Assembly: GCA_045655005.1 (NCBI GenBank)
Contig: JAZOOJ010000006.1
Location: 70,130 to 134,129, forward strand
Length of the DNA stretch: 64,000 nucleotides
Origin: Clostridia bacterium
GTDB taxonomy: Bacteria; Bacillota; Clostridia; Christensenellales; UBA1242
Direction of reading: 5' to 3'
A model generated the notes under the pieces. That model worked only from the letters and a program-made list of their open reading frames with translations, had not been told where the DNA came from and made no database searches. Below, in pieces: positions 9,916-14,011 of this stretch. Made by a program: the position numbers and the translations under genes. The first letter of the stretch is position 1. Each line of letters begins with the position of its first letter.

Positions 9916-9959
9916 TTCGACAAAATAAATAGAATATTAAAATTTTAATAAAAGAAACT

Positions 9960-9987: not shown

Positions 9988-11106
9988 ATGTTTAAAAGAC
10001 TAAAATTTTTTATTGTAAATTTTTTAATTGTCGCAATCGTGGGATTATTGCCGGTAATAAACACGTCAAATTTTAATGTGGTTATGAGCGGTAATATTTG
10101 CCCATCTAATATAATAGATAAAATTTTTCAGTTGGTAAAACCTGACTCAAAGATTAAAGAAACAGAAGTTATTGAAAGATTTAAGGTGCACGTTAGCGGA
10201 AGGCCTATCGGTTTTTCAATTGATGCGGATGGAGTTGTGGTTGTTTCTATGGGAGAAATTAAAACATCTTCTGGATTTATTAATTCCCCATGTGAAGTGT
10301 CTGGTATTAAACCGGGAGATATTATTAAAAGAGTGAATGGTGTGGAAATTACAAGCGGAGAAAGGCTGATCGATGTAGTAAATTCAAAGCCGGGCGAGGT
10401 ATGTAATATAGAACTAAATAGGAAAGGAGAAACGATGTATGTTGATGTCTGCCCGATTTACGATGAATTTGCACTTTCTTATAGGTTGGGTGTGTGGGTA
10501 AGAGATAATTCGGTTGGGGTTGGCACAGTTACTTACGTAACACAAGACAATTGTTTTAGTGCGTTAGGTCATCCAGTGACGGATGCAGACACTTCAACAA
10601 TTTTGCCTGTTGGCGTAGGAAGAACATTTAAATGTTCGATAGTAGGGGTAAAAAAAGGCATTAAGGGTGAACCGGGAGAACTAAAAGGTCTATTTTTAAA
10701 AACATCAAATGAAGTCGGTAGTATTCTAAGCAATACAACGACTGGAATAAGAGGACAATTTGTGTCCAGTGAAACAAGCGAAATGTTCAAAGATTTAGAA
10801 CTTACTGAGGTCGCATTGAGAAAAGAGGTAAGCGTTGGTGATGCTTCTATTTATACTACAATAGATGGCAATACACCAAAGCTTTACAATATTGAAATTA
10901 TTAAAACTAATCATATCAACAGTTATGGGAATAAGTGTATGGTCATTAGAATTACAGATAAAGAACTTTTAACTAAAACAGGTGGCATTGTTCAAGGAAT
11001 GAGTGGTAGTCCAATCTTGCAAAATGGTAAACTTATTGGATGTGTAACACACGTTTTCATTAATGACCCTAGTAAAGGGTTTGCGGATTTTATTGATTTA
11101 AAATAA
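9988..11106 (+). CDS. spoIVB: SpoIVB peptidase (S55 family)
   Basis: N-terminal TM segment, PDZ-like GIKPGDIIKRVNGVEI, and the catalytic-Ser region GIVQGMSGSPILQNGKLIGCVTHVF. Confidence 0.9.
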   Translation: MFKRLKFFIVNFLIVAIVGLLPVINTSNFNVVMSGNICPSNIIDKIFQLVKPDSKIKETEVIERFKVHVSGRPIGFSIDADGVVVVSMGEIKTSSGFINSPCEVSGIKPGDIIKRVNGVEITSGERLIDVVNSKPGEVCNIELNRKGETMYVDVCPIYDEFALSYRLGVWVRDNSVGVGTVTYVTQDNCFSALGHPVTDADTSTILPVGVGRTFKCSIVGVKKGIKGEPGELKGLFLKTSNEVGSILSNTTTGIRGQFVSSETSEMFKDLELTEVALRKEVSVGDASIYTTIDGNTPKLYNIEIIKTNHINSYGNKCMVIRITDKELLTKTGGIVQGMSGSPILQNGKLIGCVTHVFINDPSKGFADFIDLK

Positions 11107-11123
11107 TAAAAAAACATTTATAT

Positions 11124-11183
11124 TATTCAAAAATATTCAAAAATAATAAAAGATATTCAAAAATATTCAAAAATAATATAAAA
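11124..11183 (+). repeat. Tandem 30-bp duplication carrying four phased TATTCAAAAA decamers
   Basis: TATTCAAAAA occurs at 11124, 11134, 11154 and 11164. The two 30-mers differ at 2 positions. The repeat ends 3 nt before the -35 of the downstream promoter. Confidence 0.85.
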
Positions 11184-11186
11184 TTG

Positions 11187-11216
11187 TTGGACATTTTAGC
11201 TTATCTCTGTTATACT
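11187..11216 (+). promoter_or_regulatory. Sigma-A-like promoter of the Spo0A_C-domain gene
   Basis: TTGGAC, 18-nt spacer, TATACT, 32 nt upstream of ATG 11248. Confidence 0.45.
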
Positions 11217-11247
11217 GATATTTATTATAGTAGGAAAAGGAGTTATA

Positions 11248-11640
11248 ATGCTTGAAGATTCACAAAAAGAATATAAATATGTTGTAAATAAATTTTTAAT
11301 GGACTACCCATTTAACACTTCTCAGGTTGGGTACGATTACTTAGTAGATTCTATTGCAATGGTTTTAGAATCAGAAAGAAATAAAAGGTTAAGATTAGGT
11401 AAGGATATATATTCAGAACTAGCTAGTAAGGCAAGGGTGAATTTAAAATATTATGAAAAAGCCGTAAGGCAGGCATTACAAACAGTTTCTACAAATTGCA
11501 GATTTAATCAAGATGTTGAATATCCAAATGATGCTGTGAGGTTGGCGTTTAAAGCACCTACAGCAAAAAGTTTTATTTATACTATTGGAATGCAGATTAT
11601 GCTAGAGAGAGATGAAAAGTTTTTTAAATTAAGCAAATAA
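11248..11640 (+). CDS. Stand-alone Spo0A C-terminal (DNA-binding effector) domain protein with no receiver domain
   Basis: 130 aa. By eye it aligns with the B. subtilis Spo0A C-terminal domain: VGYDYLVDSIAMV vs KGYLYLREAISMV; EKAVRQALQTV vs ERAIRHAIEVA; APTAKSFIYTIGMQIMLE vs KPTNSEFIAMVADKLRLE. It lies directly after spoIVB, where spo0A normally sits. Confidence 0.6.
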   Translation: MLEDSQKEYKYVVNKFLMDYPFNTSQVGYDYLVDSIAMVLESERNKRLRLGKDIYSELASKARVNLKYYEKAVRQALQTVSTNCRFNQDVEYPNDAVRLAFKAPTAKSFIYTIGMQIMLERDEKFFKLSK

Positions 11641-11713
11641 TTAAAATAGTTGTGTTAATGCTTTTTATGTGCTAAAATTAATTGGTAAAATTGTTAATTT
11701 TAGGAGTATTATT

Positions 11714-14011
11714 TTGGCTAGTATAGTAGATAATTTAAATAATGAACAAAGGCTCCCAGCGCTTCATACAGAGGGTCCTGTGTTGGTGACTGCTGGGGCT
11801 GGTAGTGGAAAAACAAGGCTTTTAACTCATAGGATTGCACATCTAATTCAAGATATGGGAGTGGCTCCTTCAAATATACTTGCAATTACTTTCACAAATA
11901 AAGCAGCAAATGAAATGAAAGAGAGGTTGTCAAAACTTCTCTCTTTTGGTGTACAAGGAATGTGGATTTTTACTTTCCACTCTATGTGTTCAAGAATTTT
12001 AAGGATGAATGGCGATAGGGTTGGTCTTGATAAAAATTTTTCAATTTATGGAGATAGTGAAAAAGATAGGCTTATAAAAAGAGTTCTTCAAAACAATCCA
12101 GAATTTGTGAAGCTTGAAAAAAACAAATTAAAACCAGAGTCTGTTGCCTGGCACATTTCAAATGCAAAAAATGAATTACTGTCACCAGATATGTATGCTA
12201 TAAAAATTAAAAGAGATATTTATGCAAATATAATTATCAAAGCATATGAAGACTATCAAAGGGAATTGTTAATAGCAAACGCTGTTGATTTTGATGATAT
12301 GCTATGTAAGACCTATGAACTACTTATAAACAATAATGACGTAAGAGAATTTTACCAAGATAAGTTTAAATATATTCACGTTGACGAGTTTCAAGACACT
12401 AATGTTGTTCAATATGAACTTGTTAGAATGTTAGGAGCAAAGCACAATAATGTATTTGCCGTCGGAGATGAAGACCAGTGCATATATTCTTGGCGAGGTG
12501 CGAAGTTTACAAACGTTCAAAAATTTATAGACGATAATAAGGATATTGCTATATTTAAGTTGGAACAAAACTATCGCTCTACTTCAAAAATATTAGATGC
12601 TGCAAATAGGATTATAAAAAACAACTCTAACAGATTAGAAAAAAATCTTTGGACAGAGAATGATGAAGGTAGTGATATTAAATTTTATACTGGATACAGC
12701 GATCACGAAGAGGCAGAATTTGTTGCGTCAAAGATAAAGAAAATGGTAATGGAAGACGGAAAACATTTTTCAGATTTTGCTGTTTTAATGCGTGTGAATG
12801 CCTTATCAAGGGTATTTGAAGAAAAGTTTTTAAACTATCAGATACCTTATCAAGTATATGGTGGATTCAAATTTTTTGAAAGAAAAGAAGTAAAAGATAC
12901 TTTGGCTTATTTAAAACTTGTATCAAATCCAAAAGATAACGACAGTTTTGTAAGAGTTCTGGCTTTCCCTAAAAAAGGAATAGGTGAAGCAACGGTAAAG
13001 AAGCTATTGGATACAAGTAGCGTTTATGGACTAAGTGCGTATGAAATTGCAAGGACAGGAATGGGTATAGATGAGTCAACCATAAAAAAACTTGCACCGG
13101 TAGTAAACTTAATTCAGTCATATATTGAACAAAAAGCGGTATTGTCAATTTCTCTATTAACAAACAAAGTTGTCGATGAGTGTTGTTTAAAGACTGCCTA
13201 TTCAAGAGAGATTGAAGAAGAATTGTCAAAAATTCAAAACATTGAGATGTTACAAAAGTCAGTTCTTGAATACGAAGAAGCAAATGAAGACCCAACGCTT
13301 GAAGATTATTTGCAATCGGTTACGCTTTCAAGAGATATTGATGAAATGAAAGATGAAGATAATAATGTGTCAATTATGACCATACACTCTGCAAAAGGAT
13401 TAGAATTTCCAATTGTTTTTGTTGTTGGTTTAGTTGAGGGGGTTTTACCAACTTCAAGGTCTTTGTATTCAAGCAATCCAAATGATTTAGAAGAAGAGCG
13501 TAGGCTAATGTATGTTGCAACAACAAGAGCAAAAGAAGAATTAATATATACAAGACCTACAACAAGATTTAGTTTTGAAACAAAAAGGACAGAATCAACA
13601 ACTGCTTCAAGATTTTTGAAAGAGTCGGGCATAAAAGCAATTGAAACGTCGCCACGTAAAGAATATGGAGCAGATTATACATCAGAAAGAGATTATTTTC
13701 ACTCTTCATCAAATTATAGGACAAGAAGCGATAGTTTTAGTTCTGGTGCTAGGTATATGTCGTCAAATGTGGGATTTGATGACAGAAGTGATGTTATTGC
13801 AGAAGAGAAACCAAAGTTAACAGCAGAAAAAGTTAATGAATATAAAAAATTCAAAGTAGGAACATTTGTATCACATAAAAGTTTTGGTAGGGGTGTGGTA
13901 ACAGTCGCTGTAACTGATCCAAGTTCGGGTTTTGTTACTATTAAGTTTGACAATGTAGGCATAAAAACATTATCATTAAAATTTGCACCATTAACAATTT
14001 TGGAGGAATAA
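11714..14011 (+). CDS. pcrA: ATP-dependent DNA helicase PcrA/UvrD
   Basis: UvrD motifs AGAGSGKT, VDEFQDTN, QNYRS, TIHSAKGLEF, VATTRAKE. TTG 11714 lies 7 nt after AGGAG; the track start is GTG 11669. Confidence 0.9.
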   Translation: MASIVDNLNNEQRLPALHTEGPVLVTAGAGSGKTRLLTHRIAHLIQDMGVAPSNILAITFTNKAANEMKERLSKLLSFGVQGMWIFTFHSMCSRILRMNGDRVGLDKNFSIYGDSEKDRLIKRVLQNNPEFVKLEKNKLKPESVAWHISNAKNELLSPDMYAIKIKRDIYANIIIKAYEDYQRELLIANAVDFDDMLCKTYELLINNNDVREFYQDKFKYIHVDEFQDTNVVQYELVRMLGAKHNNVFAVGDEDQCIYSWRGAKFTNVQKFIDDNKDIAIFKLEQNYRSTSKILDAANRIIKNNSNRLEKNLWTENDEGSDIKFYTGYSDHEEAEFVASKIKKMVMEDGKHFSDFAVLMRVNALSRVFEEKFLNYQIPYQVYGGFKFFERKEVKDTLAYLKLVSNPKDNDSFVRVLAFPKKGIGEATVKKLLDTSSVYGLSAYEIARTGMGIDESTIKKLAPVVNLIQSYIEQKAVLSISLLTNKVVDECCLKTAYSREIEEELSKIQNIEMLQKSVLEYEEANEDPTLEDYLQSVTLSRDIDEMKDEDNNVSIMTIHSAKGLEFPIVFVVGLVEGVLPTSRSLYSSNPNDLEEERRLMYVATTRAKEELIYTRPTTRFSFETKRTESTTASRFLKESGIKAIETSPRKEYGADYTSERDYFHSSSNYRTRSDSFSSGARYMSSNVGFDDRSDVIAEEKPKLTAEKVNEYKKFKVGTFVSHKSFGRGVVTVAVTDPSSGFVTIKFDNVGIKTLSLKFAPLTILEE

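Follow-up and report, generated by a model that had tools for sequence, protein, structure and literature searches.

The 130-aa gene that directly follows spoIVB in the window—the whole stretch of 64,000 nucleotides analyzed here—encodes a stand-alone, receiver-less Spo0A effector domain, and the same genome encodes a separate, full-length Spo0A at an unlinked locus. It is reasonably probable that the small gene is a decayed ancestral spoIVB-linked spo0A, whose product would by now bind DNA in the manner of Spo0A, independently of phosphorylation and in an accessory role beside the unlinked full-length copy, the presumed master regulator. The observations behind this reading are the domain and its predicted fold, the second full-length copy, synteny, a family-wide decay series, and purifying selection on the small gene.

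The small gene is an ATG-start open reading frame at 11248–11640 on the forward strand, whose product comprises six predicted helices and the whole effector domain without a receiver. On the same strand, it is preceded by spoIVB (9988–11106, 372 aa), the conserved neighbor upstream of spo0A and the sole S55 peptidase gene of the genome, which matches TIGR02860 with 324.6 bits—above the cut-off—and PF05580 with 250.3 bits. From the stop of spoIVB to the ATG of the small gene, there are exactly 141 nt (11107–11247). Profile searches match the 130-aa protein to Pfam Spo0A_C (PF08769) with 37.5 bits and an E-value of 2.5e-9 at a gathering cut-off of 25 bits, aligning residues 14–114 to profile positions 2–101 of 104. 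A Response_reg match is absent from this protein even at E ≤ 1, and both receiver domains of the genome lie away from the small gene. Hence, the preliminary description of this locus, which had read from the letters a 130-aa ORF directly after spoIVB, a by-eye likeness to the Spo0A DNA-binding domain, and a gap of 141 nt that leaves no room for a receiver, is borne out on all of these points.

The likeness extends to the level of structure. HMMER pairs YEKAVRQALQ of the small protein with VERAIRHAIE of PDB 1LQ1/1FC3, and a profile of the eight orthologues of the genus matches 1LQ1 at E 3.3e-5. An AlphaFold prediction that drew on 11 orthologues shows six helices with a pLDDT of 90.2. When this predicted structure is compared with the PDB by Foldseek, ranks 1–7 are all taken by Spo0A C-domain chains of 1FC3/1LQ1 with a probability of 1.00 and TM-scores of 0.55–0.68 (query-normalized) or 0.66–0.81 (target-normalized), and the probability falls to 0.33 at the rank that follows them.

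On the level of motifs, the small protein departs from canonical Spo0A. It scores 20.7 bits on TIGR02875, below the curated cut-off of 200, and its recognition helix is KYYEKAVRQALQTVS instead of the canonical SRVERAIRHAIEVAW that reads TGTCGAA. The residues of this helix that last across the genus are E213 (invariant), K/R214, and R/K217, with Arg214 being replaced by Lys in six of the eight orthologues. PAHIKGY of canonical Spo0A has become PFNxSQVGY in the small proteins, and the LYP block, the AW.RG block, and the sigma-activating helix are all altered as well. In B. subtilis Spo0A, the sigma-A-activating helix comprises residues about 227–240; the matching region of the small protein is noncanonical, yet it is conserved within the genus as NC.N..(D/N)..YP...IK.AF, with P93 invariant. 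Given these altered canonical DNA-contact motifs, DNA binding or its specificity may be changed or lost.

Searching the genome (1.25 Mb, 20 contigs, 95.8% complete) with PF08769 and TIGR02875 reveals a second spo0A gene on contig C9 (G000:C9:119404-120147), whose 247-aa product bears both a receiver and Spo0A_C. This protein reaches 228.9 bits on TIGR02875 (cut-off 200), 69.9 on Response_reg, and 134.8–136.7 on Spo0A_C, and carries the canonical recognition helix SKVERAIRHAIEVAW. As residue ruler, we use the B. subtilis Spo0A sequence, on which D56 is the phospho-acceptor. On this ruler, the C9 protein keeps D10, N11, D56, S86, and K108—the active-site pattern D-N-D-S-K—and, thus, its phospho-acceptor and switch residues are intact. 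A perfect 0A box, TTCGACA, is located about 45 nt ahead of its start codon. Contamination as the source of the C9 gene is ruled out by the composition of the contig, whose GC content matches the genome and whose tetranucleotide profile agrees with r = 0.998, and by the full-length copies that six of the other seven genus species were found to carry, near-closed assemblies of three and four contigs among them; in G007 (92% complete), no receiver domain was found. The preliminary description had suggested that the organism runs sporulation entry on a receiver-less Spo0A, and had named a full-length spo0A at another locus, together with clustering of the small gene among mobile-element paralogues, as observations that would speak against it. 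With 228.9 bits on TIGR02875, the C9 gene is such a copy, and the suggestion is contradicted.

Within the genus, all eight species carry the Spo0A_C-only form with 126–146 aa, at 26–57% identity to the protein of the window. Downstream of the small gene, pcrA is found in eight of eight species, an adjacency shared by all genus members checked and absent from the other genera sampled. Directly upstream, spoIVB is found in seven of eight; the contig of G007 reaches only 113 nt past the small gene on this side, which leaves the position of spoIVB outside the contig. A search for related loci with the single 130-aa protein as query yielded no relatives in the genome contigs; the genus loci were reached through pcrA.

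The family as a whole comprises gut Clostridia with genomes of ~1 Mb in more than 70 genera, of which 61 genomes were sampled. All 61 match Spo0A_C. Almost all of them have one highly conserved copy with about 130–146 bits in a frame of about 250–300 aa, and this conserved copy never adjoins spoIVB in the loci fetched. This unlinked full-length paralogue, in which all canonical motifs are conserved at about 140 bits throughout the family, readily suggests itself by its sequence as the master regulator. In addition to the conserved copy, most family genomes bear one to three divergent Spo0A_C copies, and at least 23 of the 40 that were fetched with their context lie directly after spoIVB. These spoIVB-linked copies are mostly 229–277 aa long. 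Their N-terminal halves give no Response_reg match in any of nine tested; the acidic pair is kept in none of 22 and Lys108 is lost in 16 of 22, while the Asp56 position is often still Asp. Judged by these residues, the N-terminal halves are pseudo-receivers.

Two side observations concern the unlinked copies of the family. Among the unlinked Spo0A proteins—the C9 gene and the family loci L020–L048—D56, S/T86, and K108 are kept and D11, the second acidic residue of the receiver pocket, varies between D, N, E, T, and C; such variation is uncommon in response regulators whose phosphotransfer requires Mg2+. And in one family genus, a divergent 251-aa paralogue (L027, G014:C36) is positioned in tandem right after the conserved full-length copy and not behind spoIVB, the coordinates of this locus being 1075–1830 and 2047–2802.

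In other families of the order, it is common to find spoIVB-linked and unlinked full-length copies that both have good receivers; the genomes that represent these families in the sample yielded seven full-length copies linked to spoIVB. Judged by gene content and tree, the order, hence, shows a duplication of spo0A: a classical orthologue behind spoIVB and an unlinked copy that forms a clade of its own. The Spo0A_C-only form also occurs outside the genus, directly after spoIVB in each case: as a 157-aa gene in another genus of the family (L153, G071:C1, 3846–4319) and as a 111-aa gene in another family of the order (L178, G036:C3, 3048–3383). Together with the genus of the window, these two cases make receiver loss at the ancestral spo0A slot a recurrent process.

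Phylogenetic trees of the C-domain were calculated in a broad version with 130 rows and a careful one with 96 rows, both on about 115 columns and with many long branches. In the 130-row tree, a single clade with 100% SH-aLRT unites the unlinked copies of family and order; of the seven spoIVB-linked copies from other families, five group with Spo0A of other orders of the class, and the remaining two are unresolved nearer the base. In the 96-row tree, the small proteins of the genus form a clade (100/98), which is nested in a set of spoIVB-linked paralogues of the family (99/90). Forcing the small proteins into the unlinked clade worsens lnL by 37.6 with an AU p of 0.142 on this 115-column domain with its long branches, so that descent from the ancestral gene rests on synteny and the best tree together rather than on the tree by itself. 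Taking synteny and phylogeny together, the small gene is most likely a descendant of the ancestral spoIVB-linked spo0A. This agrees with its earlier placement at the canonical spo0A position, as a spo0A-type gene fills the same slot across family and order; grouping with mobile-element paralogues, which had been considered at the same time, was not found.

The small gene is the fastest-evolving of its neighborhood, with 53–68% amino acid identity compared to 63–85% in the neighbors. Nevertheless, in three pairs that include metagenomic orthologues, pN lies far below pS with omega values of 0.11, 0.13, and 0.15—rough values, since dS is saturated (1.2–3.0)—next to 0.09 for spoIVB, 0.17 for xseB, and 0.04–0.06 for pcrA. 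In metagenomes, 32 clusters of 115–147 aa, all without a name, keep frame and length, as do eight of eight species of the genus, and the columns P21, A59, E70, P93, K107, and F109 are invariant in eleven aligned orthologues. Measured by these substitution patterns, the small gene is under purifying selection.

Its expression signals can be read from the sequence as well. A Shine-Dalgarno motif, AAGGAG (11237–11242, forward strand), is positioned 5 nt ahead of the ATG, and a strong GGAGG-type RBS is found at the equivalent place in three orthologues (L218, L219, and L008). Further upstream on the forward strand, a putative sigma-70-type promoter (11188–11216) consists of TGGACA, a spacer of 17 nt, and TATACT with a TG before the -10 element; as a mere consensus match, it agrees at 10 of 12 positions and is the best promoter-like site of the region. 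The TTGGACAT and (G/T)TATA(C/T)T blocks are kept in the same three orthologues.

Just upstream of the -35 element, four identical TATTCAAAAA decamers start at 11124, 11134, 11154, and 11164 (11124–11173, forward strand), which amounts to a duplicated 30-bp unit. Their core TTCAAAA agrees with the reverse 0A box TTCGACA at five of seven positions and corresponds to the G2T/C4T variant of the 0A box TGTCGAA. In the nearest orthologues, two or three TTCAAAA cores with an exact spacing of 10 bp occupy the same place upstream, and more distant members of the genus have perfect TTCGACA 0A boxes in place of TTCAAAA. Across the upstream regions of nine orthologues, the combined motif TTC[GA]A[CA]A is counted 21 times versus 1.9 times in shuffles, and at 13 per kb versus 1.7 per kb genome-wide—an enrichment that is overstated by these figures because the motif was defined post hoc and the upstream regions are related. 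For C. difficile Spo0A-DBD, the G2T/C4T change in PabrB lowers binding roughly 10-fold (PMC3485338). The TTCAAAA boxes might also be plain A-tract or UP-like DNA. Speculatively, box (TTCAAAA) and helix (Arg214 to Lys) might have changed jointly in this sub-lineage.

The TATTCAAAAA array is the only cluster of its kind in the whole genome; a search for further TTCAAAA arrays as signs of a possible regulon returned no other cluster. The canonical TTCGACA box is not enriched in noncoding DNA genome-wide, with 11 of 94 boxes versus a non-ORF fraction of 12.3%, and none was found upstream of spoIIE, spoIIA, and the sigG-like gene. Hence, a regulon cannot be drawn from these boxes. One of the only 11 TTCGACA boxes in the noncoding DNA of the genome is located within the window at 9916–9922, between the stop of xseB (9915) and the start of spoIVB (9988).

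Downstream of the small gene follows pcrA (11669–14011, forward strand), a UvrD-family helicase gene with 306.9 bits on Pfam UvrD-helicase. Translation of pcrA probably begins with the TTG at 11714, which follows AGGAG (11702–11706), and not with the GTG at 11669. A terminator-like site is not predicted between the small gene and pcrA, and the two may therefore be co-transcribed.

The sporulation genes had been described as intact in the window, and this holds beyond it: besides spoIVB, the genome contains spoIIE, spoIIAB-sigF, and sigG/E/K-like genes, and the sporulation gene set looks intact. Regarding phosphate input, the genome has two receiver domains only—Spo0A and one OmpR-type regulator—and a single histidine kinase of 484 aa, which adjoins the OmpR-type regulator (G000:C9:89225-91277). 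A Spo0F-like single receiver was not found in the genome. Two further HATPase_c matches were discarded as orphan kinases: a weak one on C15 is a MORC/Hsp90-like ATPase, and one of 167 aa is SpoIIAB. Each member of the genus has zero or one histidine kinase, and in G004 (97% complete, 3 contigs) no HATPase_c sensor kinase was detected, with full-length Spo0A being kept. The proposal of the preliminary description that there is no phosphorelay input is, thus, met halfway: the one histidine kinase is paired with its own regulator and a Spo0F-like receiver is absent from the genome, but a full-length Spo0A of the phosphorylatable type is present. This near-absence of histidine kinases raises the question of how the full-length Spo0A gets activated.

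Taken together, we propose the following course of events. In this order of gut Clostridia, spo0A would have been duplicated long ago, giving rise to a second, unlinked full-length Spo0A. In the family with ~1-Mb genomes, this unlinked copy would be the conserved and phosphorylatable one and presumably the master regulator, while the spoIVB-linked copy would have lost its phospho-acceptor pocket first and turned into a pseudo-receiver protein. In the genus of the window, the pseudo-receiver would then have been lost entirely, leaving a complete effector domain on its own. In Spo0A, the effector domain is kept inhibited by the receiver as long as the latter is unphosphorylated. Without a receiver there would be no phosphorylation control, and the activity of the small protein would be set only by the amount made. 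The isolated DNA-binding domain of Spo0A binds legitimate targets without phosphorylation (PMC3485338). With its complete effector domain and the conserved helix core E-(K/R)-x-x-(R/K), the small protein is, by its sequence, most likely a phosphorylation-independent DNA binder. What we infer beyond this concerns its DNA binding, its target sites, and the division of labor between the two copies: the small protein would most likely bind DNA of the 0A-box type, perhaps also at the four phased TTCAAAA boxes before its own promoter, and modulate Spo0A-type targets as an accessory activator or a competitor.

Several other explanations have to be weighed against this accessory binder. If the receiver-less protein were the organism's Spo0A and sporulation entry proceeded without phosphorylation input, this would fit the canonical spo0A position, the missing receiver, and a genome whose one histidine kinase is paired with an OmpR-type regulator and in which a Spo0F-like receiver is missing—all the more as G004 has no detected kinase. 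We nevertheless regard it as quite improbable: a full-length Spo0A above the TIGR02875 cut-off is encoded here and was also found in six of the other seven genus members, the C9 copy has the canonical recognition helix and D56/S86/K108, and the small protein reaches 20.7 bits on the same model and evolves fast, down to 26–57% identity in the genus. As the sole Spo0A, the small protein is ruled out by the full-length gene on C9. It is less improbable, although still unlikely, that the ancestral spo0A has become a constitutively active DNA-binding domain whose transcription via the phased 0A-like boxes decides sporulation, with a full-length paralogue that receives little or no kinase input. The basis for assuming so little input is the one paired kinase here and none detected in the 97%-complete relative. 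If this were true, sporulation entry would be governed by the transcriptional dosage of a receiver-less Spo0A and not by a phosphorelay. A further possibility, which we entertain tentatively, is that the small protein works as a competitor or anti-activator: it would occupy 0A-type boxes or titrate a Spo0A partner, such as sigma or a DNA-bound dimer interface, and thereby dampen or delay the action of the full-length Spo0A instead of activating transcription on its own. The sigma-A-helix region, noncanonical but conserved in the genus with its invariant P93, the retained core of the recognition helix, and boxes in its own promoter that would fit a negative feedback are in line with such a role; yet activation and competition do not separate at the sequence level.

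The small gene could also be a functionless remnant, whose ORF persists as promoter or DNA for pcrA-ligA or whose decay is incomplete. The fastest amino acid change of the neighborhood, the lack of a predicted terminator ahead of pcrA, and the progressive decay in the parent lineage point in this direction. However, eight of eight species and 32 metagenomic clusters have an intact frame of constant length, pN stays far below pS at omega values similar to those of the neighboring real genes, and a strong conserved RBS, invariant columns in the genus, and a confident predicted fold come on top of this, which makes a remnant improbable. The possibility of a mobile-element or phage Spo0A_C gene that came to lie beside spoIVB by chance is brought up by the enrichment of PF08769 on gut mobile elements (PMC6907783) and a weak match of 26.7 bits to phage family phrog_24603. 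On the contrary, the flanks are core genes with nusB-xseA-xseB-spoIVB upstream and pcrA-ligA downstream, tblastn yields 0 matches in 50,697 phage and 72,556 plasmid records, a spo0A-type gene occupies this slot throughout family and order, and the tree groups the gene with chromosomal spoIVB-linked copies. Such an origin is extremely improbable, and by its core-gene flanks and the absent phage and plasmid matches, we consider it ruled out.

Endospore formation is treated as being under one universal master regulator, Spo0A, which is gated by phosphorylation. In the present case, two Spo0A lineages run through a whole order of abundant, uncultured gut Clostridia, and in the family with ~1-Mb genomes, the gene at the textbook locus has been stripped stepwise of its phosphorylation machinery, being under selection throughout. 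For gut metagenome annotation and the prediction of sporulation, this means that the gene after spoIVB is not safely taken as a functional spo0A. At the same time, these copies form a natural series for asking what role a phosphorylation-independent Spo0A domain plays beside a full-length one.

Compared with Spo0A of Bacillus and Clostridium (TIGR02875; PF00072 plus PF08769; 1FC3 and 1LQ1), the small protein shares the six-helix effector fold, as predicted here, and the helix core E-(K/R)-x-x-(R/K), and its gene shares the slot behind spoIVB and 0A-type boxes in the promoter region, as at spo0A. It differs in having no receiver, in its 20.7 bits on TIGR02875, in the altered PAHIKGY, LYP, and AW.RG blocks, and in the separate full-length Spo0A that is encoded in the same genome. 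The sad67-type deletions of B. subtilis are receiver-less Spo0A mutants. With such receiver-less laboratory forms of Spo0A—the sad67 type and C. difficile Spo0A-DBD (PMC3485338)—the small protein has in common that the effector domain stands alone, and by analogy, phosphorylation-free binding would be expected. Those forms are truncated master regulators of canonical sequence, whereas the small gene is natural, diverged, and coexists with a full-length copy.

The single-domain architecture is also shared with Spo0A_C proteins of mobile elements and phages (PMC6907783; phrog_24603), from which the small gene differs by its core chromosomal slot, its vertical inheritance in the genus, and its lack of phage or plasmid relatives in tblastn. 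Among 1.84 billion representative proteins, a profile search finds 1728 matches at E ≤ 0.001, and the best 150 of these include dozens of single-domain proteins of 110–170 aa; hence, the stand-alone Spo0A_C architecture is common. The metagenomic proteins P0041, P0042, P0045, and P0057 bear three to six tandem Spo0A_C domains in 394–959 aa with 240–322 bits summed; they could be genuine proteins with several DNA-binding domains or result from fused gene calls.

Genomes with several spo0A-type genes are likewise known among Clostridia: according to a survey, two spo0A genes occur in 10 of 118 Spo0A-encoding Firmicutes genomes and three in one (bioRxiv 10.1101/2022.02.25.481979). The passages of the survey that deal with paralogues count them, and a split into linked and unlinked copies, pseudo-receivers, or receiver loss is not described in these passages. 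What appears to be new in the present case is that the ancestral locus shows an ordered series, from an intact receiver via a pseudo-receiver to no receiver, beside a conserved unlinked paralogue.
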